A stretch of 59,933 nucleotides of DNA from Candidatus Bathyarchaeia archaeon (GCA_037481775.1 JBBFKZ010000010.1:1-59933); one strand, 5' to 3'. Positions 6,451-36,573 are shown, counted from the stretch's first letter. Made by a program: numbers and translations. The notes: generated by a model from the sequence alone, not told the origin.

Positions 6451-6741
6451 ATGGTGGCACAAGAAGACTTTAACCAACTGATGAAAGAAAGCCGAGATGA
6501 ATTGGTAAATCTGAGAGCACAATTGCAAAATTTAATGGTTAAGTTTGGTTTACGTGCATTAAAAACATATCAAGCAGCAAGAACCGAGCCTCTTCGACCA
6601 ACAGAAGTTAATTCGTTGATCAAATATGAATTAGACAACATAATCCAAGATCTATCTGAACCAAGAAACATAGAGGCAATAATCACTCAAACCACACAAG
6701 AATGGACAAAACAACAAGAAGCAAAACAAAAGAAACAATAA
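6451..6741 (+). CDS. hypothetical helical protein
   Basis: 96-aa ORF with AAGGAG RBS and upstream TATA-like TATATTTAAA. Confidence 0.75.
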   Translation: MVAQEDFNQLMKESRDELVNLRAQLQNLMVKFGLRALKTYQAARTEPLRPTEVNSLIKYELDNIIQDLSEPRNIEAIITQTTQEWTKQQEAKQKKQ

Positions 6742-28831: not shown

Positions 28832-29410
28832 ATGACAGCTGAACTTCAGGTTGGAAAAGCGTTCATACGCATAGTGAAAGGCGACATTACAGAAATGGCG
28901 ACAGATGCCATAGTAAACGCTGCAAATTCTTCGCTTATGGGAGGAGGCGGCGTAGACGGCGCGATACACCGCAAAGGAGGCCCCAAGATACTGGAAGAAT
29001 GCAAAAAAATACGGGCAACAGAATGGCCACATGGACTGCCCGCTGGAAAGGCTGTTATTACAGGCGGAGGTAACCTCAAAGCGAAATACGTTATCCACAC
29101 AGTTGGGCCTATCTGGCATGGAGGAGACCGCGGCGAAGCAGAACTTTTGGCGCAGGCTTATCAGAATTCACTGAAGCTCGCCGTAGCTAAAGGGTTGAAA
29201 TCAATAGCTTTCCCAGCTATAAGCACGGGCGCCTATGGTTATCCTATCGAAGACGCGTGCAAAATCGCTTTAACAGTGGTAAAAAAATTTCTGCAAAAAG
29301 AAGATGGCCTAAATAAGGTTGTGTTTGTCTTGTTTTCTGAAAGTGCATTTAAAGTCTATTTTAACATGATTTTTGGCAACGCAAATAAAACCTGTACCGT
29401 TCCTTTTTGA
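28832..29410 (+). CDS. macrodomain O-acetyl-ADP-ribose deacetylase (YmdB-like)
   Basis: GDIT....DAIVNAAN..L.GGGGVDGAIH, VIHTVGP, FPAISTG.YGYP. Confidence 0.93.
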   Translation: MTAELQVGKAFIRIVKGDITEMATDAIVNAANSSLMGGGGVDGAIHRKGGPKILEECKKIRATEWPHGLPAGKAVITGGGNLKAKYVIHTVGPIWHGGDRGEAELLAQAYQNSLKLAVAKGLKSIAFPAISTGAYGYPIEDACKIALTVVKKFLQKEDGLNKVVFVLFSESAFKVYFNMIFGNANKTCTVPF

Positions 29411-29548
29411 TCCTTTTAACCTGTTTACTCGAGCTTTATTTACGCCATAACACAATAAAGAAAGTATAGAATTGCCGCGTAAATTTACCATCAAAATTTT
29501 GCTCGGCATTGAAATAAGCTGCCAATACTTCCTGTTTACGAGTAAATT

Positions 29549-29623
29549 AGTGCGGGGGGTGGGACTTGAACCCACTCTTTTGGGGTCTTTTTCCATTTTA
29601 GGCGAGGTTTTGTTTTTGCTCAT
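29549..29623 (-). CDS. integrase N-terminal fragment int(N)
   Basis: MSKNKTSPKMEKDPKR runs into the att in the same frame (VGSSPTPRT) as int(C) (VGSNPTPRT); the ORF-track extension to 29309 is host readthrough. Confidence 0.8.
29550..29575 (-). repeat. att site: duplicated 3' end of tRNA-Leu
   Basis: GTGCGGGGGGTGGGACTTGAACCCAC versus GTGCGGGGGGTGGGATTTGAACCCAC at 34723-34748 (1 mismatch). Confidence 0.95.
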
Positions 29624-29649
29624 GTTTTGTCTTCCTATGAGGTAACTGT

Positions 29650-29688
29650 TAACTGTTATTTTTGTTGGGAATGTCTTAATAACAGTTA
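29650..29688. promoter_or_regulatory. 11-bp inverted repeat upstream of int(N)
   Basis: TAACTGTTATT-N17-AATAACAGTTA with an extra TAACTGTT half-site at 29643. Confidence 0.55.
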
Positions 29689-29764
29689 CTCAACTTTTGG
29701 CAAAAGTAAAAGAGATTAAGTCAATTTTTTGAGTAGCACTTTTTCATTTTTTAACCCTGTTGTG

Positions 29765-30508
29765 TTATTTCGCTTGTTGTAAAATTCTTATTTCAGGGCA
29801 GAGAGGACATTTACCTTTTAAGGGCTCACCATTTTCAACTTTTGATGCTAAAAGCAAAACGTCTCTGGCAAGTTCTGCAAATAAATCAATAACATTTTTG
29901 TTAGCTCCCTTCATGTAGAACATGTCACAAGAACGTCGTATCTCATTCTCAATATTATACTTCCATGATGAATCATTTTTGGTTATTTGTTCTGCAAAAT
30001 CACATTTGCCCATCAACAAGCCACCAATAGAAAGCCATTCCATGCGAATTCGTTCAGCCTCTTCAAATATATCGTTTTTACTTTTTTCTTGTTCTTGTTT
30101 TTTTCTTTCTTTTATGAACTCTTCAATTTTCAAGAGTTTTTCATAAATCTTAGGGTAACCTGTCTTCAAGTGCTCTTTTGCGTTATGGCAAAGATTGTTT
30201 GGTGTGTTGAAACTGGAAAAACAAAGAAGAATCAAGAATTCAGGAACTACACGTTTTGAGTGCTCTAAAGCTATATTATATTCTTGAGCGTTTTGATAAG
30301 TTCTAATGTATTCATACCATACATAATAATTACCTTCTTTTCGCACCAGTCCCCAATAAATGAGGTAATCTTTTAAGAGCCGCTCAAGTGTCTTTTTTGG
30401 AATTCCAAGCTTAAGTAGGTCGCTCCAACTTTTTTCTCCATCCTTAAGGGTCTCAATGACTAGTTTTATCCAATGTGAGATTGACACTTTCTTAGCCATT
30501 GTTATCAT
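29765..30508 (-). CDS. winged-helix protein with C-terminal CxxC (putative repressor of the element)
   Basis: HTH-wing pattern SWSDL.KLGIPKKTL.R.L...L..WGLV.KEG..Y; C-terminal GKCPLCP; divergent from the RHH gene. Confidence 0.65.
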   Translation of the reverse strand: MITMAKKVSISHWIKLVIETLKDGEKSWSDLLKLGIPKKTLERLLKDYLIYWGLVRKEGNYYVWYEYIRTYQNAQEYNIALEHSKRVVPEFLILLCFSSFNTPNNLCHNAKEHLKTGYPKIYEKLLKIEEFIKERKKQEQEKSKNDIFEEAERIRMEWLSIGGLLMGKCDFAEQITKNDSSWKYNIENEIRRSCDMFYMKGANKNVIDLFAELARDVLLLASKVENGEPLKGKCPLCPEIRILQQAK

Positions 30509-30513
30509 CTTCT

Positions 30514-30541
30514 TGACACCAAGATACTATATCAGGTGTCA
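30514..30541. promoter_or_regulatory. palindromic operator in divergent promoter
   Basis: TGACACC-aaGATActaTATCa-GGTGTCA. Confidence 0.6.
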
Positions 30542-30575
30542 TCAATATAAAGATTTGCAGAGGTGAAACAAAGAG

Positions 30576-30743
30576 ATGACTAAAGTGAAGAAGGAGCTTG
30601 TAAACCTAAACGTCAAAATACCTAAAAACATGGCTGAAGCCATACAGGGATTAATAAAAAATGAACTTTTCACAAACACCAGCGAATTTGTCAGAGAAGC
30701 AATCAGGAAACAAGTGCAAAACATAGAGACAAAAGAGGCTTAA
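30576..30743 (+). CDS. ribbon-helix-helix (CopG/Arc/MetJ) DNA-binding protein, 55 aa
   Basis: not in ORF track; MTKVKKELVNLNVKIPKNMAEAIQGLIKNELFTNTSEFVREAIRKQVQNIETKEA; GAGGTGA RBS. Confidence 0.88.
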   Translation: MTKVKKELVNLNVKIPKNMAEAIQGLIKNELFTNTSEFVREAIRKQVQNIETKEA

Positions 30744-30746
30744 GCT

Positions 30747-31001
30747 ATGGATGAAGCAAAATTTGAGCCTACCATTCTAAGCGCTGTCTGCAAGTGTGGA
30801 GCAGTCTTCCAAGCAGTCGTTAACTTGCCAATATACTGTGAGCTCTCAGACGACAAGGGCAACATCTACCACCTGAAAATCGCTGAGCATGTAATCGTGA
30901 AATGTCCATTATGCAACAGACTCCTGAATGTAGGCAATGGCAGTAAACGTGAAACTGAGCCACCTGAGAAGCACGAGAAAGGCATCTACGTTCAATATTA
31001 A
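30747..31001 (+). CDS. small zinc-finger protein
   Basis: CKCG...CPLC; 3 nt after the RHH stop. Confidence 0.7.
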   Translation: MDEAKFEPTILSAVCKCGAVFQAVVNLPIYCELSDDKGNIYHLKIAEHVIVKCPLCNRLLNVGNGSKRETEPPEKHEKGIYVQY

Positions 31002-31037
31002 GCCACTGAAAAGGAGAAGGAGAAAGGATAACTGTTT

Positions 31038-32969
31038 ATGACGTTGCAGAGCGATAAAAGCTTTGCTGAAGCAGTAAAGGAATACGACGAGTCAGGTTTA
31101 GTTAAGCGCTTACTGTGCCCTTTCTGTGGACAGGACAAACTTAGGCTAAGCCACGTTGACGACGTAGGCACGCCATTCTATAAGTGTGATAACTGTGGAA
31201 GATTCTGCTCAAATCCTAAGACTGCAGAGCGCAAACAGCTTGAGGAACAGCTTGCCCATGCAGAAAAAGTTTCAGATGAAGAGGAAGAAGAAGAGGAGAA
31301 GCAAGCATTAAACCTCTATGTTCTCGCTAAAGCCATAATCTACGACATGCCAATAATCACAGACAAGCGCACCTACCTCATGCTAAGATTCAATGGCAAA
31401 AGCTGGGAAGACGACGCAGAAAGCTACATCCAAGAGAGACTGGTAAAAGCAGAGGGAGACGCCTACAAGCCATATCACTTGACAACGCTCACGCAGATGA
31501 TTCAGGGCTTAACGTTCGCAGAGTTCCAAGAGCCAGAGCCTAACCTGCTGTGCCTCGAGAATGGAGTCTTAGACGTTCACACGATGACGCTGAAGCCTCA
31601 CAGCCCAGAATACCACTTCAGAAACATGATAAACGCAGAATACAAGCCAACAGCGAAAGCCACAGAATTCGAGCGCTGGCTTGAAGAGGTTCTACCAGAC
31701 CCAGAGGCGAGAAAATGCATCCAAGAAATTTTTGGCTACTGCCTCTACAGAGACTACCCACTTCACTACCTATTCTTCCTTGTGGGCTCAGGAAGAAATG
31801 GAAGAAGCACCCTAATGCGCACACTACAGGACATCTTAGGCAAGAAACAATGCTCAAGTGTGCCTCTTGAGCTTCTACCAGAACGTTTCCAAGTAACTAA
31901 CCTAATTGGCAAATTGGTAAACATAGTTTCAGAGCCACGCAGTAGAAAAGCATTGGACACGCCAATAATTAAGAAGCTCACAGGAGCAGACTTGATAGAC
32001 GCAGAGATAAAGGGCAAGCAGAAAACCATAGCCTTCACAAACTACGCTAAGATTATCGTTTTAGCGAATGAGCTTCCACCAGTAAGAGACACGTCATATG
32101 GATGGTGGGAGCGAGTCATAGTCATAGAGTTTCCAGTAACCATTTCTGAAGAGAAACGTGTGCCCAACATAGAGGAGAAATGGCTAAGCAATCCTGAAGA
32201 ACGCAGTGGAATACTCAACTGGGCTCTTGAAGGGCTCAAGCGCCTATTCATAAACAGGTGCTTCACAAAAAGCGAATCCATGAAAAACCAGATAGAGCAG
32301 TATAAACGATGGAGCCAACCAGCAGAATACTTCCTTGAGAAATACTGCAGGTATGCACCTAACCTATGGATAACCAAAAAAGAGCTATACGAAGCCTACA
32401 AGCTCATATGCGAAGAAGAAGGCTTACAGGTGCTTTCAGAAGAAAACTTCGCAAAAGAAGTGAAGAAGAAGCCAAGAGTAAAGGTGGAGAGAAGAAGATT
32501 AGAAGGAAGAAGAGAACAAGTCTGGGTAGGTTTAACAATAAAAGAAGAACTTTATACGCAAACAGAAAATGAAGAGAACCTGCCTACTCAGAACAGAGAC
32601 ATTTGCTCATTTATGAAAGAGAATGACCAAACTGGTCAAGGTGGTCAAGGTGGTCAAGGTATTTCCTTACCACGTGAAATGTTAAAGCCTATGGAAAATC
32701 ATGATGAAGAGAACGTAGAAGAAGATTTTAAGACAATAAGAAATCACCCTGACCACCCTGACCACCCTGACCACTTGGAGCATTCTCTGGGAGACTTGCT
32801 TAAGCAGTTTAGAGCCAAGTTTCCAGACTGCTTCAATAGCACTGAATTTTACCACTTCATGATTGCTATGCATGGATTATCTTCTGAGGATGCTGAGAGT
32901 CTGCTTAGGCGCTTGAAGGAGAGTGGAGAAGTGTTCTCTACGTATGAAGGAGTTTACAGGTGGAGTTAG
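31038..32969 (+). CDS. phage/plasmid P4-alpha/D5-type SF3 helicase (replication protein) with N-terminal Zn ribbon
   Basis: CPFC..CDNC ribbon, D5_N motif LC.ENGVLD...M.L.PHSP, Walker A GSGRNGRST, Walker B NIVSE, motif C LANELP, C-terminal wHTH. Confidence 0.9.
   Translation: MTLQSDKSFAEAVKEYDESGLVKRLLCPFCGQDKLRLSHVDDVGTPFYKCDNCGRFCSNPKTAERKQLEEQLAHAEKVSDEEEEEEEKQALNLYVLAKAIIYDMPIITDKRTYLMLRFNGKSWEDDAESYIQERLVKAEGDAYKPYHLTTLTQMIQGLTFAEFQEPEPNLLCLENGVLDVHTMTLKPHSPEYHFRNMINAEYKPTAKATEFERWLEEVLPDPEARKCIQEIFGYCLYRDYPLHYLFFLVGSGRNGRSTLMRTLQDILGKKQCSSVPLELLPERFQVTNLIGKLVNIVSEPRSRKALDTPIIKKLTGADLIDAEIKGKQKTIAFTNYAKIIVLANELPPVRDTSYGWWERVIVIEFPVTISEEKRVPNIEEKWLSNPEERSGILNWALEGLKRLFINRCFTKSESMKNQIEQYKRWSQPAEYFLEKYCRYAPNLWITKKELYEAYKLICEEEGLQVLSEENFAKEVKKKPRVKVERRRLEGRREQVWVGLTIKEELYTQTENEENLPTQNRDICSFMKENDQTGQGGQGGQGISLPREMLKPMENHDEENVEEDFKTIRNHPDHPDHPDHLEHSLGDLLKQFRAKFPDCFNSTEFYHFMIAMHGLSSEDAESLLRRLKESGEVFSTYEGVYRWS
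32633..32774. repeat. inverted pair of triple 9-bp repeats inside the helicase gene
   Basis: (TGGTCAAGG)3 at 32633-32659 and (ACCCTGACC)3 at 32746-32772; reverse complements except one position. Confidence 0.9.
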
Positions 32970-32971
32970 AA

Positions 32972-33340
32972 ATGGGAAACGAGGATTTCATGATTTTCCT
33001 TGAAGACTTCTGCAATTTCCTGAATGACTTGGAAGCCTCTATTGTCGAAATGAAACAGCAGATTGCTAAGCTTACGTCTGGAGAGCAAGTGTGGACATGG
33101 AATCCTGAGGCTATTCGCTGGGAAAGGGCTGAGGGCGCTAATGGCGAATATGAGAAAAGCGTGGACTATAATAGCAGAGACTTCAAGGCTTTACTGAGGG
33201 ACTTGTCTGCGCATGGTGGAAAGCTTATTCGTGAAGGCTTCTTTTACTGGCTTTTCAGGAATGGCTTAACTGTAGGTAGAAAACGTAGGGTAAAAGACGC
33301 AGAAAACAAGTGTGTTACAAGGAGAATGGATAATCCATGA
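32972..33340 (+). CDS. hypothetical protein of the integrated element
   Basis: AGGTGGAG RBS; short coiled coil then WNPE.I.WE..EG..G.YE domain. Confidence 0.7.
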   Translation: MGNEDFMIFLEDFCNFLNDLEASIVEMKQQIAKLTSGEQVWTWNPEAIRWERAEGANGEYEKSVDYNSRDFKALLRDLSAHGGKLIREGFFYWLFRNGLTVGRKRRVKDAENKCVTRRMDNP

Positions 33341-33399
33341 TTAAGTCTGCTCTGTTTTTTCTGCTCATTCTTTTTGCAGTCATACTTCACGAAACAGGT

Positions 33400-33493
33400 T
33401 TCTCTGAAAACTATGGGTGTCTGTGAGGCTTGAGAAATTGAGAAATCTGAGAAATTGAGAAAAGGCTTCTCTGAAAACTATGGGTGTCTGTGA
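33400..33493 (+). repeat. 27-bp direct repeats enclosing 4 x TGAGAAA(T): iteron-like array
   Basis: TTCTCTGAAAACTATGGGTGTCTGTGA at 33400-33426 and 33467-33493; AT-rich TATATATATTAATTA follows. Confidence 0.88.
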
Positions 33494-33824
33494 AAGTGGT
33501 GAAATGGTATATATATTAATTACAGTGTGGAAAGAGGCTTTTTTCTGGCTCTTTCAGTGTCTAAAACATGCTTATTTCATCTTATTATGGAAAGATGAAG
33601 TTAGAATGAGTTAGCCATGAATGCTTAACCTGACTTTAACATATTGCTATAAGTTAAAGTGAGATGGAAAAAGCACCTTATCTGCATGAAAACTTGGTAG
33701 AAAGCAAGGATTCAATATTAATTGAAAATAAATATATACGCAACTCAGACATATACGCAAAAAGACATATGAAACTGAAACGTTAACTTCAGAAATCCAA
33801 ACCAATCAAGTGTAGCCTTTAGGT

Positions 33825-34748
33825 TTACGTAAGCATTTTTGGCTTTCTCAGACAATAACCCCACTCAGTCTTAGCCACAAACTCATAACCATCACTGAGA
33901 TATTTCGCAAGCTCTTCTTTTTCCACAGCATAAACAACATCAAACTCGTTTTCCCTAACCCAACTTTTCACTATGTGCACATACCTAAGCGTATTTTGAA
34001 TGTTGCAGTGCCTCGCAAAACGCTGAGTCTCCACAATATCTTTAGTCTTGAAGTATTTCCAGCTAATCGCAAAATGTCTGAACGTGTGGAAATGAATTTT
34101 CAGAAAGTCAGAGTTTCCAGTTTCCTCAGCTAAAATTTGCCTATAACGCCATAAAGCGTTATTAAGGTATTTTACATTTTTAAATTTGAAGATTCTCTCA
34201 GCTTTTTTAGGAATCTTCATTAAAAGAGTTGTAAGCTCTTCGCTTATGGGATACTGCATTGTTCTATGTCCCTTAACTCCAGTTATTGTTATGGTTCTGT
34301 TTTGAAGGTTCACGTCTTTCCATGTTAAGCACCAAACCTCTGAAGCTGAAGCCCCAGTTTCCACAGCGATTAAAACGCAAGCTCTGAACTGAAGGTTTCT
34401 AATCCTGTAAATTAGCTGTTTAACCATTGAGGGAGTGGGAACATAAAGCTCTGTGTTATTGTAAGCTCTGAATTTTGGCTTCTGAACCTTCAACCCTAAG
34501 AACTCTGCATATTGCCTAATAGTTTCTAAAGCGCATTCTTTGCTTTTTTCACTCCAATTCTTAGCCAAGACTTGACTGAACATGTTTTCAATTGGATAGT
34601 TCAATTTTTTGAGGTATTTCAGCTTCCTTTGAACAGTGCTTTCTCTGTTGCCTTTTCTAAGCAACCATAAACCAAACTCGACAAGTTTAGCATCATTGAA
34701 AACTGCAATAGGTTCGATATAGGTGCGGGGGGTGGGATTTGAACCCAC
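33825..34748 (-). CDS. tyrosine recombinase/integrase C-terminal part int(C)
   Basis: HTFRH (HxxR), RH.NI..TLRY (H...Y), GVKG (K); frame opens inside the att/tRNA T-arm; the first catalytic Arg position reads Ser (ETGASASE). Confidence 0.92.
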   Translation of the reverse strand: MGSNPTPRTYIEPIAVFNDAKLVEFGLWLLRKGNRESTVQRKLKYLKKLNYPIENMFSQVLAKNWSEKSKECALETIRQYAEFLGLKVQKPKFRAYNNTELYVPTPSMVKQLIYRIRNLQFRACVLIAVETGASASEVWCLTWKDVNLQNRTITITGVKGHRTMQYPISEELTTLLMKIPKKAERIFKFKNVKYLNNALWRYRQILAEETGNSDFLKIHFHTFRHFAISWKYFKTKDIVETQRFARHCNIQNTLRYVHIVKSWVRENEFDVVYAVEKEELAKYLSDGYEFVAKTEWGYCLRKPKMLT

Positions 34749-34808
34749 GAACCCCTGCGGGATAGGCTCCTGAAGCCTACGCCTTTGGCCAGGCTCGGCG
34801 ACCCCCGC
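34724..34808 (-). tRNA. tRNA-Leu(CAG)
   Basis: acceptor GCGGGGG/CCCCCGC, discriminator A, anticodon arm TAGGC-TTCAGGA-GCCTA, long variable arm, GGTTCAAATCC. Confidence 0.97.
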
Positions 34809-35640: not shown

Positions 35641-36573
35641 TTACAAGATTTTATTATATGGTTCTCTCAATTGGTTTGCGCGTACAAAAAGCTCTTTCAA
35701 CTCTTTGTCGCCTGCGCCTCGGCGCATAGGCGTCAAAACATCAACTAAGTTATCGTTCCGCATAAGACAGGTTTTTAGCTTACCGTCGCTTGTAACTCGC
35801 AGTCTTGTGCAGTGAGCGCAGAACTCGCCGTTCTCAGTGGGATGCACCACTTCCACTGTTACGTCAGGCAGATAATAGATGTGCCGGTTATTCATGAAAC
35901 GCCTAGTTTCTATCTTCACGGCTTTCTGGCGTAGCATCTCCTCATGCTCATTCAAGAAGTTGTGGTAAACTGAAAAATATGTTTCGTCAACGTTCACAGG
36001 ATCAAGCTCGATTAGTTGTAGTATTGTGCCGGTTTGCCGCGCGAAATCCATCATTTCCGGCACATCATCAAAGTTGACGCCGTTCAAAACAACCATGTTA
36101 AGTTTAACAGGCTGGAAGCCTGCTTCAACCGCAGCTTTGACGCCGTCTAAAACATTTTCAATTTGCCCTTCAGTAAGCTTACGATAAACTTCCTTGTTTA
36201 GCGTGGGCAAACTAATGTTAACGCGCCTTAAGCCGCAAGCGCGAAGTTCCTGCGCTCGAGCACCAAGCATACTGCCGTTGGTCGTCATCGAAAGATCTTT
36301 CACGCCAGGTATTGCGGAGATACCTTTGACAATTTCGCAGAGGTCTTTCCGCATGAGCGGTTCTCCGCCTGTAAGCTTAATTCGGCTGATACCTAGCTCA
36401 ACAGCGATTTTCGCAATTCTCACAATTTCTTCAGCAGTCATTTCCTCAGTAATGCTGTTTGCGCTGCATTCTTCGCCTTCTTTATGGCAGTAATCGCAGC
36501 GCAGGTTACATCTCGGCGTTACTGCTATCCTAAGATTAAGCAGAGGTCTACCGTATCGGTCTATCAAGGTCAT
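35641..36573 (-). CDS. moaA: GTP 3',8-cyclase
   Basis: radical SAM CNLRCDYC, LTGGEP, C-terminal FC..CTRLRVT.DGKLK.CL. Confidence 0.95.
   Translation of the reverse strand: MTLIDRYGRPLLNLRIAVTPRCNLRCDYCHKEGEECSANSITEEMTAEEIVRIAKIAVELGISRIKLTGGEPLMRKDLCEIVKGISAIPGVKDLSMTTNGSMLGARAQELRACGLRRVNISLPTLNKEVYRKLTEGQIENVLDGVKAAVEAGFQPVKLNMVVLNGVNFDDVPEMMDFARQTGTILQLIELDPVNVDETYFSVYHNFLNEHEEMLRQKAVKIETRRFMNNRHIYYLPDVTVEVVHPTENGEFCAHCTRLRVTSDGKLKTCLMRNDNLVDVLTPMRRGAGDKELKELFVRANQLREPYNKIL

Follow-up and report, generated by a model that had tools for sequence, protein, structure and literature searches.

This report concerns a small integrated element at positions 29,550 to 34,748 of a 59,933-nt stretch of DNA from a Candidatus Bathyarchaeia archaeon (GCA_037481775.1, JBBFKZ010000010.1:1-59933), the whole of which is called the window here. 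The element is bounded by a 26-nt direct repeat (29550-29575 and 34723-34748, one mismatch) with a spacing of 5,173 bp, which corresponds to the last 26 nt of a tRNA-Leu(CAG) gene. Between the two attachment (att) copies lie six intact genes and a 484-bp non-coding stretch with iterons. An earlier interpretation made from the DNA alone (the sequence-only reading) had predicted a 5,173-bp circle from att repeats in tRNA-Leu and had listed an integrase, a wHTH (winged helix-turn-helix) protein, a ribbon-helix-helix (RHH) protein, a zinc-finger protein, a D5/P4-type helicase with a zinc ribbon, one further open reading frame (ORF) and two repeat arrays. The repeat and its spacing were found, the genes were as described according to Pfam, homologues and motifs, and the arrays lie at 33393-33505 and 33734-33770. 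In agreement with the same reading, no capsid, conjugation or primase-polymerase family was matched among the element's proteins in Pfam or PHROGs, and the locus is a compact capsid-less integrated replicon in a tRNA-Leu gene of a Bathyarchaeia host. Three of the proteins (ORF247, ZF84 and ORF126) have no Pfam or PHROG family of their own. Relative loci are labeled L, relative proteins P, contigs of the window's genome C and genomes G, with G000 being the window's genome. The features of the locus, with the evidence for each in brackets, are as follows.

29550..29575, no strand: attL, the final 26 nt of tRNA-Leu in a second, displaced copy with the T-loop variant GGGACTTG (direct repeat)
29576..29764, minus: 5' piece of the integrase gene, codons 1-16 (29576-29623), and its upstream region (frame continuity, repeats)
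29765..30508, minus: ORF247, wHTH DNA-binding protein with a long helical C-terminal domain (homologues, AlphaFold model)
30509..30575, no strand: divergent intergenic region with an inverted repeat (sequence, repeat scan)
30576..30743, plus: RHH (CopG-type) protein, 55 aa (PF01402)
30747..31001, plus: ZF84, small zinc-finger protein, CxC...CxxC (motif, homologues near Rep genes)
31038..32969, plus: primase-less superfamily 3 (SF3) helicase, 643 aa (Pfam, PHROGs, PDB match)
32960(32972)..33340, plus: ORF126/122, conserved small protein (homologues, model)
33341..33824, no strand: non-coding region, candidate replication origin (repeats, conservation)
33825..34748, minus: C-terminal portion of the integrase gene, 307 codons (PF00589)
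34723..34748, no strand: attR, the copy of the att core in use as the 3' end of the functional tRNA (direct repeat, overlaps the tRNA)
34722..34808, minus: tRNA-Leu(CAG), the intact target gene (ARAGORN, Rfam)

Near-identical copies of the element are present in other contexts. Relatives were collected with an alignment-based metagenome scan, in which 139 helicase relatives were found among 180 candidate stretches and 80 were kept; single-sequence helicase scans of genome contigs and viral contigs gave no match, and alignment-based scans were needed. Two of the loci are nearly the same element. The 63.9-kb contig L034 matches the window only over 29549-34808 (98.7% identity) and L035 only over 29549-31994 (98.8% identity), and the flanks of both differ from those of the window and from each other. 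The left flank of L034 (L034:1-1815) is a CRISPR array of 23 repeats adjoining the tRNA-Leu(CAG) target, with a 37-nt repeat close to the one in the array that contig C5 of the window's genome carries. Its right flank is ~67% identical to the tRNA-Leu(CAG) neighborhoods of the family members G386 and G389, but blastn gave no match for it in the window's genome, and the host of L034 is apparently of another genus. The 130-nt left flank of L035 ends, in our own reading of the sequence, in an apparent integrase C-terminus. All six ORFs are open in both the window and L034. Since an element of 98.7% identity is found in two contigs with different flanks, it is recently mobile and not a remnant.

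The element is held by four public runs from four studies, for which coverage and junctions were judged from assembled (Logan) contigs of the runs rather than from raw reads, so that rare forms are not visible. In the three runs other than the probable source run, the element stood at ~5-57x against 0-5x for the window's flanks. Contigs in these runs stop exactly at the att ends even though the core is shorter than the 31-letter index word, which suggests that the element's ends adjoin several different sequences in these runs, as would result from several insertion contexts or from a circle. No joint that skips the element (an empty site) was seen among the assembled contigs of the four runs; the joints listed were rejected, having sides of 22-24 nt in low-complexity sequence. 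No RNA run was among the listed holders of the element.

The integrase gene is split by integration. Its C-terminal part is directly downstream of the tRNA in the same orientation, starts at an in-frame GTG inside attR and matches PF00589 with 59 bits (cut-off 27.1) as well as PHROG integrase families. At the opposite end, an ORF at 29309-29623 (minus) opens with MSKNKTSPKMEKDPKR, followed by VGSSPTPRT across attL in the frame that is also used across attR (VGSNPTPRT-YIEP). This frame is unbroken from the ATG at 29623 through attL and from attR into 33825-34748. With no break in it at either att copy, a 323-aa integrase would be encoded on the circle, and integration separates the promoter region and the first 16 codons from the rest of the gene. 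In the circle the gene is preceded by 140 bp that contain an 11-nt perfect inverted repeat (TAACTGTTATT/AATAACAGTTA, arms 29650-29660 and 29678-29688) upstream of the integrase start. The region 29576-29764 also contains two copies of TAACTGT and is 100% identical in L034 and L035.

The recombination site thus lies inside the integrase ORF, as in the SSV-type, 'suicidal' or type I, integrases, and the SSV-like design that the comparison with pSSVi in the sequence-only reading implies was borne out. Passages of PMC8371274 describe the suicidal integrases of SSV, pTN3 and pT26-2 as having their attP in the int ORF and as targeting tRNA genes in the 3' part, and state that PF16795 marks all known members. 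In this case PF16795 (Phage_integr_3) was absent from the integrase matches at E<=0.1, while relatives L022, L036, L029 and L190 do match it. The signature here is S...HxxR...Y (S or T in the clade), as opposed to the SSV-type consensus R...KxxR...Y given in that part of PMC8371274. The arrangement resembles that of pTN3 in that the C-part is downstream of and co-oriented with tRNA-Leu and keeps an in-frame start codon; it differs from the suicidal integrases in that only 16 codons plus 9 att-encoded codons are split off and that the att core is 26 nt, where 40-50 bp is said to be usual (same passages of PMC8371274).

The first catalytic arginine (Arg-I) of tyrosine recombinases is a serine in this integrase (34330-34350, codons for ETGASASE). 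The catalytic Lys (VKGH), the HTFRH motif, the His (ARH) and the Tyr (LRYVH) are all present. The Ser faces Arg-I in phmmer alignments to Pyrococcus abyssi XerA (4a8e) and HP1 integrase (1aih), and the column was confirmed by a profile-profile alignment with hhalign against 11 Arg-bearing relatives. Among 17 integrases from the collected loci, the five closest have Ser or Thr at this position and the other 12 have Arg. In the clade made up of the window's integrase and 120 database clusters at >=50% identity (P0275-P0394), whose members are mostly from Bathyarchaeia, the residue is Ser in 80, Thr in 37, Cys in 4 and Arg in none (n=121), and the column ten residues upstream is Arg or Lys in 121 of 121. 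Between the window and L034 the ratio of nonsynonymous to synonymous polymorphism (pN/pS) of the integrase is 0.06, indicating strong purifying selection. Recent mobility together with this selection suggests that the clade is probably active, which would be unusual for a tyrosine recombinase without Arg-I. Neither such a clade nor an Arg in the Walker A motif of helicases of the kind described below was found in the literature searched, a search that was not exhaustive. Decayed, frameshifted integrases of the same clade are located beside tRNA-Leu(CAG) in other genera (L181:4729-5635 in G389 and L183:10153-10921 in G390).

The largest gene encodes a helicase with an N-terminal CxxC...CxxC zinc ribbon followed by D5_N, a DUF5906 P-loop, an RFX/Pox_D5 winged helix, a repetitive linker and a C-terminal domain (D5_N PF08706, 55 bits; DUF5906 PF19263, 56.9 bits; phrog_864, E 1.8e-99; best PDB match 7ola_A, 9e-21). 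Residues 1-147 have no Pfam match, and no fused primase domain of the PrimPol/AEP or DnaG type was found; the PHROG families annotated as DNA primase align only through the helicase part (residues 66-514). Relatives with the primase PF09250 are P0008, P0010, L059, L029 and L188. The short helicases P0002-P0006, which are 57-63% identical, indicate that the primase-less state is conserved. The Walker A motif reads GSGRNGRST (31785-31811), with Arg at the position of the Lys, and does not fit the canonical GxxxxGK[ST]. This Arg is found in 7 of 44 aligned helicases, which form the closest subclade and include two long helicases (P0005 and the PrimPol-bearing P0021); Lys is found in the remaining 37 (GRNGKGT). 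The pN/pS of the helicase between the window and L034 is 0.43. The last 67 aa of the helicase share 51% identity with the Rep C-termini of L188 and L189. The linker contains QGG and HPD repeats that come from perfect 9-nt tandem repeats in the coding sequence (32633-32660, 3.1 copies; 32745-32774, 3.3 copies), and the differences between the window and L034 cluster near 30810-31100 and 32815-32882.

The non-coding region at 33341-33824 is most simply read as a replication origin, judging from its repeats and conservation. A 46-nt repeat present twice (33393-33505) encloses four copies of TTGAGAAA (33430-33462), and a 17-nt repeat occurs 2.2 times at 33734-33770. A conserved block (33628-33757) combines the inverted repeat ACTTTAAC...GTTAAAGT with an AT-rich run; part of it (33628-33743) is 92% identical to G151 and 74% to G490, which exceeds the identity of the neighboring genes. 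The iteron block recurs three times in L178 with the same TGAGAAATTGAGAAA iteron, and no Rfam family matches 33341-33824. Alternatively, the region may contain an antisense promoter or the arm sites of the integrase.

Two divergent regulators flank a 67-bp intergenic region (30509-30575) that may serve as promoter and operator. The RHH protein matches PF01402 RHH_1 (E 1.5e-5, 25.2 bits, cut-off 20.5). The ORF247 family has 218 representatives at E<=0.001, and its homologues L188:5945-6685 and L178:6870-7733 match the MarR, HxlR and ArsR wHTH families. The AlphaFold model of ORF247 (pLDDT 86.4) places a winged helix at residues 10-64 ahead of a helical domain; H83, H113, C234 and C237 are conserved, and PDB chains match only the wHTH part. 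The protein is 100% identical between the window and L034 (tblastn). ESM Atlas feature matches to PsiA (0.80-0.83) were below the level to trust, and this assignment was rejected. An inverted repeat (TGACACC-N14-GGTGTCA, 30514-30541) is present where the sequence-only reading had placed a palindromic operator, but its 7-nt arms are weakly beyond chance (~0.1 expected by a rough estimate), and the repeat upstream of the integrase start is the stronger one. Scans for sigma-70 promoters and terminators gave counts no higher than in shuffled sequence, and these models are not applicable to archaea.

The two remaining small proteins tend to accompany Rep genes. Homologues of ZF84 (pN/pS 0.46 between the window and L034) are found upstream of Rep genes in L178 (75% identical), L188 (44%), L189 (47%) and L047 (35%). 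ORF126 has four close homologues, with more copies in related elements and two more in the same genome. Its model (pLDDT 79.3) contains a long N-terminal helix, a small beta domain and a basic tail. The fold search that had been proposed for 32972-33340 gave nothing informative in Foldseek against PDB, in BFVD or in a wide PDB comparison, where the best Z was 5.0 for the N-terminal helix only and a Ku-core-like match reached Z 4.7 over 63 residues. A complex prediction of helicase residues 575-643 with ORF126 scored 0.00 in a run that had no controls. In the sequence-only reading these small ORFs were candidates for interference with a helper. They recur with Rep in larger, primase-bearing relatives and flank Rep in L188 and L189. 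Because they travel with Rep genes in plainly non-minimal elements, we read ZF84 and ORF126 as probable accessory parts of a replication or regulation module and not as helper-interference factors.

Several relatives of the element share much of this backbone. Of 7,996 candidates scored for the helicase, 726 are relatives at E<=0.001, the closest named ones come from Bathyarchaeia/Bathyarchaeota metagenome-assembled genomes, and 43 of 401 sampled genomes of the class have a match. Related elements were delimited by att repeats or terminal overlaps. Integrated ones are L182 (3,761 bp), L184 (5,122 bp, in tRNA-Cys), L096 (5,789 bp), L190 (6,450 bp), L029 (7,602 bp), L189 (7,841 bp), L188 (8,015 bp), L036 (8,268 bp), L178 (9,956 bp, from the window's genus), L022 (10,026 bp) and L024 (11,107 bp); circular contigs are L103 (7,024 bp), L092 (10,007 bp) and L069 (13,091 bp). 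Pfam was run on 131 ORFs of relatives (82 + 49), with the ORFs of L069 and L092 left out. These encode integrases, (primase-)helicases and wHTH/RHH proteins, along with cargo such as restriction-modification, toxin-antitoxin (PIN/MazE), TGT/QueT, a Cas4-like nuclease and a Schlafen/AlbA protein, and most annotated relatives carry their own primase. No terminase, portal, head-tail capsid or conjugation family was matched in the 131 ORFs. The sequence-only reading had considered that homologous elements might be larger and carry structural or conjugation genes, which would make this one a deletion remnant; this is not what was found, since the relatives examined are also compact (3.8-13 kb) and without recognized structural or conjugation genes.

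Gene order in L188 and L189 is wHTH (minus), a small ORF, a ZF84 homologue, a 147-aa ORF, Rep, an ORF126 homologue, six ORFs and the integrase (minus), and their Rep has a PrimPol domain. L178 carries homologues of ORF247, ZF84 and ORF126 (58% identical), as well as a 732-aa zinc-ribbon protein, a separate PriS-PriL-like primase, a methylase and a phospholipase D-type (PLD) nuclease. The only structural hint among the relatives is a His1_capsid match below the cut-off in L103. It comes from one of two 90-aa paralogues (ORFs 6460-6732 and 6748-7032 of L103), both of which have an N-A-T motif and a pair of hydrophobic helices, which are features of spindle-virus capsid proteins. L103 also has an integrase and an SF3 helicase 37% identical to that of the window, and it looks like a very small spindle-shaped virus. 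An ORF similar to its capsid-like proteins is located at L083:5678-5818; no homologue was found in the window or its genome. A family-wide DNA search gave short high-identity hits, which were set aside as the HTFRH-coding stretch of the integrase or low-complexity sequence.

The reading that best accounts for these observations, and which we consider probable, is a 5,173-bp self-replicating integrative element of plasmid-like ('cryptic integrated') type of a Bathyarchaeia archaeon, with a layout like that of pSSVi. Its tyrosine integrase recombines the 26-nt core at the 5' end of the integrase gene with the identical 3' end of tRNA-Leu genes, and integration rebuilds an intact tRNA-Leu(CAG) and cuts the integrase from its promoter and first 16 codons. 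Excision would give a circle in which the 323-aa integrase is restored under an operator-bearing promoter; in the integrated state, expression of the C-part by read-through from the tRNA promoter is conceivable. The divergent regulators, ORF247 on the integrase side and the RHH protein on the other, may set the state of the element, and the operon RHH-ZF84-helicase-ORF126 would act as its replication module, with the SF3 helicase loading at the iteron- and inverted-repeat-rich 484-bp region. Since the helicase has no primase, replication would be carried out by host primase and polymerase; as a precedent, the SF3 helicase of pSSVi is reported, by the title of a paper, to interact with host primase. 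Transfer between cells would require a vehicle that the element does not encode, for which vesicles, transformation or a helper virion are all possible.

Several points weigh against this reading. In the probable source run, depth was 9.8 for element-internal contigs and 8.2-8.3 for flank-bearing contigs, or about one copy per chromosome, and the raised coverage that the sequence-only reading had named as a check was not seen. No circle junction, episomal form or excess coverage was detected in that material, from which rare forms are lost on assembly. Flank synteny across the site is not kept in the congeners G118 and G139, which limits a clean empty-site comparison to ~13 nt, and the empty-site evidence is thin. 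The origin, the operators and the use of host primase are all things that we infer from sequence. Finally, the integrase without its first catalytic Arg might be inactive, as might the helicase with its Walker A Arg, and either might be served in trans by other elements.

An unlikely alternative, and the one proposed in the sequence-only reading, is that of a helper-dependent virus satellite, which would replicate and integrate on its own or with factors of a helper but spread only on being packaged by a co-infecting spindle-shaped or head-tailed virus. The element has no vehicle of its own, yet near-identical copies occur in hosts apparently of different genera, and it has no primase, unlike most relatives. 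The integrative pRN-like plasmid pSSVi, a satellite of SSV fuselloviruses, combines an integrase, CopG and a primase-less SF3 helicase in ~5-6 kb. The likeness to pSSVi, which the sequence-only reading had also noted, extends to small size, integration in a tRNA gene with att inside the integrase gene, a CopG/RHH protein and a primase-less SF3 helicase; it is a likeness of layout and not of sequence. On the same footing, the present element is from a different archaeal class and its integrase belongs to PF00589, not PF16795, and is without Arg-I; helper packaging is shown for pSSVi only. Both pSSVi and pSSVx are packaged by fuselloviruses according to the consulted portions of PMC3543421 and 10.1101/2025.02.15.638363, and pSSVi in Saccharolobus solfataricus is mostly integrated with rare episomes (a passage of PMC8371274).

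Possible helpers are at hand as well. The same assembly contains head-tailed provirus-like regions on C3 (~44,500-60,000, L212), C32 (L215) and C42 (L216), with genes for tape measure, neck, large terminase, major head protein, protease and scaffold. The genome has four large-terminase matches, one of them partial (C3:97,173-97,805 is L214), and a PF05065 search in it gave no match. The distant helicase relatives L103 and L083 carry the spindle-virus-like capsid proteins described above. Against the satellite alternative, viral homologues were found only for the integrase and helicase among the six proteins, and Pfam and PHROGs gave no AAA+ ATPase or capsid gene like those that mark pSSVx and haloarchaeal SRCE. 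Within IMG/VR the nearest relative of the helicase has 33-35% identity, and neither ORF126 nor the integrase clade gave any relative in scans of that database. Apart from tRNA-Leu 3' ends, the element has no stretch of >=20 nt in common with the rest of the genome, so that no cos or pac site is shared with the resident proviruses. CRISPR spacers, another check that had been suggested, gave no match to the element or its relatives among 71 (three genome arrays and the L034 array); the best match was 22/40 nt, and a 20-nt match in helicase genes came to only 21/36 over the full length. None of the evidence for or against helper dependence is decisive. Direct evidence for a helper was not found, and coverage is at the chromosomal level. 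The element cannot be filed as a satellite.

It is improbable that the element is a defective remnant, that is, a deletion derivative of a larger plasmid or provirus that is trapped, decaying or domesticated. It is without the primase and ~2.4 kb of extra genes of its backbone relatives L188 and L189, its integrase gene is promoterless after integration, canonical catalytic residues of both enzymes are substituted, and integrases of its clade have decayed at tRNA-Leu(CAG) in G389 and G390. However, all of its ORFs are intact with the integrase under strong purifying selection, near-identical copies exist in two other contexts, one apparently in another genus, the substitutions are clade-wide (121/121 and 7/44) and not private lesions, and other elements of equal or smaller size exist. 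A very small virus with unrecognized structural proteins, for example ORF126 or ZF84 as nucleocapsid protein, is highly improbable. In its favor, double-stranded DNA archaeal viruses of ~5 kb exist (Clavaviridae), ORF126 with its long helix and basic tail matched no known fold, and the 7-kb relative L103 resembles a spindle virus. Against it, ORF126 does not have the hydrophobic character of capsid proteins from spindle viruses or clavaviruses, is found beside Rep genes in varied elements and three times in one genome, and has no relative in the IMG/VR scan.

In its workings the element resembles pSSVi and the cryptic integrated elements (CIE) of Thaumarchaeota. Sulfolobales, Thermococcales and Thaumarchaeota are known to have small plasmids that integrate by means of a gene-splitting integrase. 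The thaumarchaeal CIE are defined by an integrase and by having no viral, conjugative or casposon signature genes, start from 2.6 kb and carry wHTH/RHH regulators and AEP/SF3 helicase Reps, and the NitEve-E3 element has an SSV1-like integrase split on integration (sections of Krupovic et al. 2019, PMC6563490). By the definition in those sections the present element is a CIE, being att-bounded with an integrase and without virus, conjugation or casposon signature genes. It differs from the thaumarchaeal CIE in its host class, in a wHTH/RHH/ZF84/helicase/ORF126 backbone shared with several Bathyarchaeia elements and in its distinct integrase clade.

The sequence-only reading also drew a parallel to bacterial P4 and phage-inducible chromosomal islands (PICI). 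The analogy, which extends to PICMI, holds for layout: an integrase, divergent regulators, a D5/P4-type helicase, a nearby origin, a size of a few kb and integration at a tRNA or similar site. It is an analogy only. Bacterial P4/PICI satellites are defined by genes for helper exploitation (cos/pac, small terminase, capsid-size or interference genes), and none of these was found in the element by Pfam, PHROGs or the shared-DNA search. The P4 alpha protein carries a primase, while the window's helicase does not. The pRN plasmid family is characterized by CopG, PlrA and a PrimPol-helicase; measured by these features, the element falls outside the family, having no PrimPol domain and no matched protein beyond RHH. 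At sequence level it belongs neither to the SSV-type integrases nor to the primase-helicase Reps.

Bathyarchaeia are a very abundant class of sedimentary archaea, uncultivated and with no genetic system. No small integrative plasmid with a gene-splitting integrase has been described for them in the literature searched, which was not covered exhaustively. A paper on the Bathyarchaeia virome (PMC10848311) treats head-tailed, filamentous and one spindle-shaped virus and touches on plasmids only in passing, and no such small elements are mentioned in the portions of it consulted. Specialists would expect an element of this type, and what is added here is the evidence of host-to-host transfer, the compact shared backbone and the integrase clade without Arg-I. 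Having a defined att site, a candidate origin and signs of recent transfer between hosts, this 5.2-kb replicon is a natural start for vectors and for the study of DNA movement in Bathyarchaeia. The integrase clade, if active, bears on the textbook catalytic set of tyrosine recombinases, and the conserved Walker A Arg raises a similar question for the helicase subclade. It is rather doubtful that everything holds jointly, namely an active replicon, one of a large and so far undescribed population of minimal replicons in Bathyarchaeia, that crosses genera as a satellite, with a gene-splitting integrase that works with Ser/Thr in place of Arg-I and a primase-less Arg-Walker-A helicase that borrows host or helper functions. 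If so, it would provide a new catalytic variant of tyrosine recombinases and possibly an independent origin of the 'suicidal' design outside PF16795.

The surroundings of the site give some further detail. G+C is 0.33-0.39 at both ends of the element, compared to 0.45-0.50 in the flanks, where ordinary genes are found (a Macro-domain gene, 28832-29410, and a MoaA-type radical-SAM gene, 35641-36573). The tRNA-Leu(CAG) gene is the sole tRNA identified by ARAGORN in the window (Rfam RF00005 tRNA, 52.6 bits), and the Rfam scan matched nothing beyond it. Over all 26 nt the attL copy equals the 3' end of a tRNA-Leu(UAA)-like gene with an intron, located on contig C3 of the window's genome, which suggests that attP came from, or also targets, this isoacceptor. 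That gene (C3 ~76995-77109, minus) was missed by ARAGORN and is read as intron-interrupted. A 24-nt att pattern with <=1 mismatch occurs six times in the genome, at the two att copies and four other sites. The 12-13 nt left of attL resemble the sequence downstream of the tRNA-Leu(CAG) site of the congener G118, which is empty; in G241, of the same genus, the site holds a different element with an integrase 35% identical.

Other loci contain related arrangements. Two more ORF126 homologues in the window's genome (C3:73485-73778 and C6:11489-11770) are each near an integrase. In these loci (C3:73485-76764, which adjoins tRNA-Arg(CCT), and C6:7147-11770) the ORF126 homologue is 46-48% and the integrase 29-31% identical, and both probably represent additional integrated elements of broadly this type. 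The 7,028-bp contig L059 repeats itself at a spacing of 5,573-5,605 bp with small indels, consistent with a replicon of ~5.6 kb present as a circle or a concatemer of variants; it encodes a 927-aa PrimPol-helicase (core 50% identical) and a C2H2 zinc-finger protein, with no integrase match among the 8 ORFs scanned. At L188:5846-17691 (G525), two elements are adjacent, the 8,015-bp one in tRNA-Leu(TAG) and after it one of 3,657 bp that has tRNA-Ala 3' repeats at its ends.

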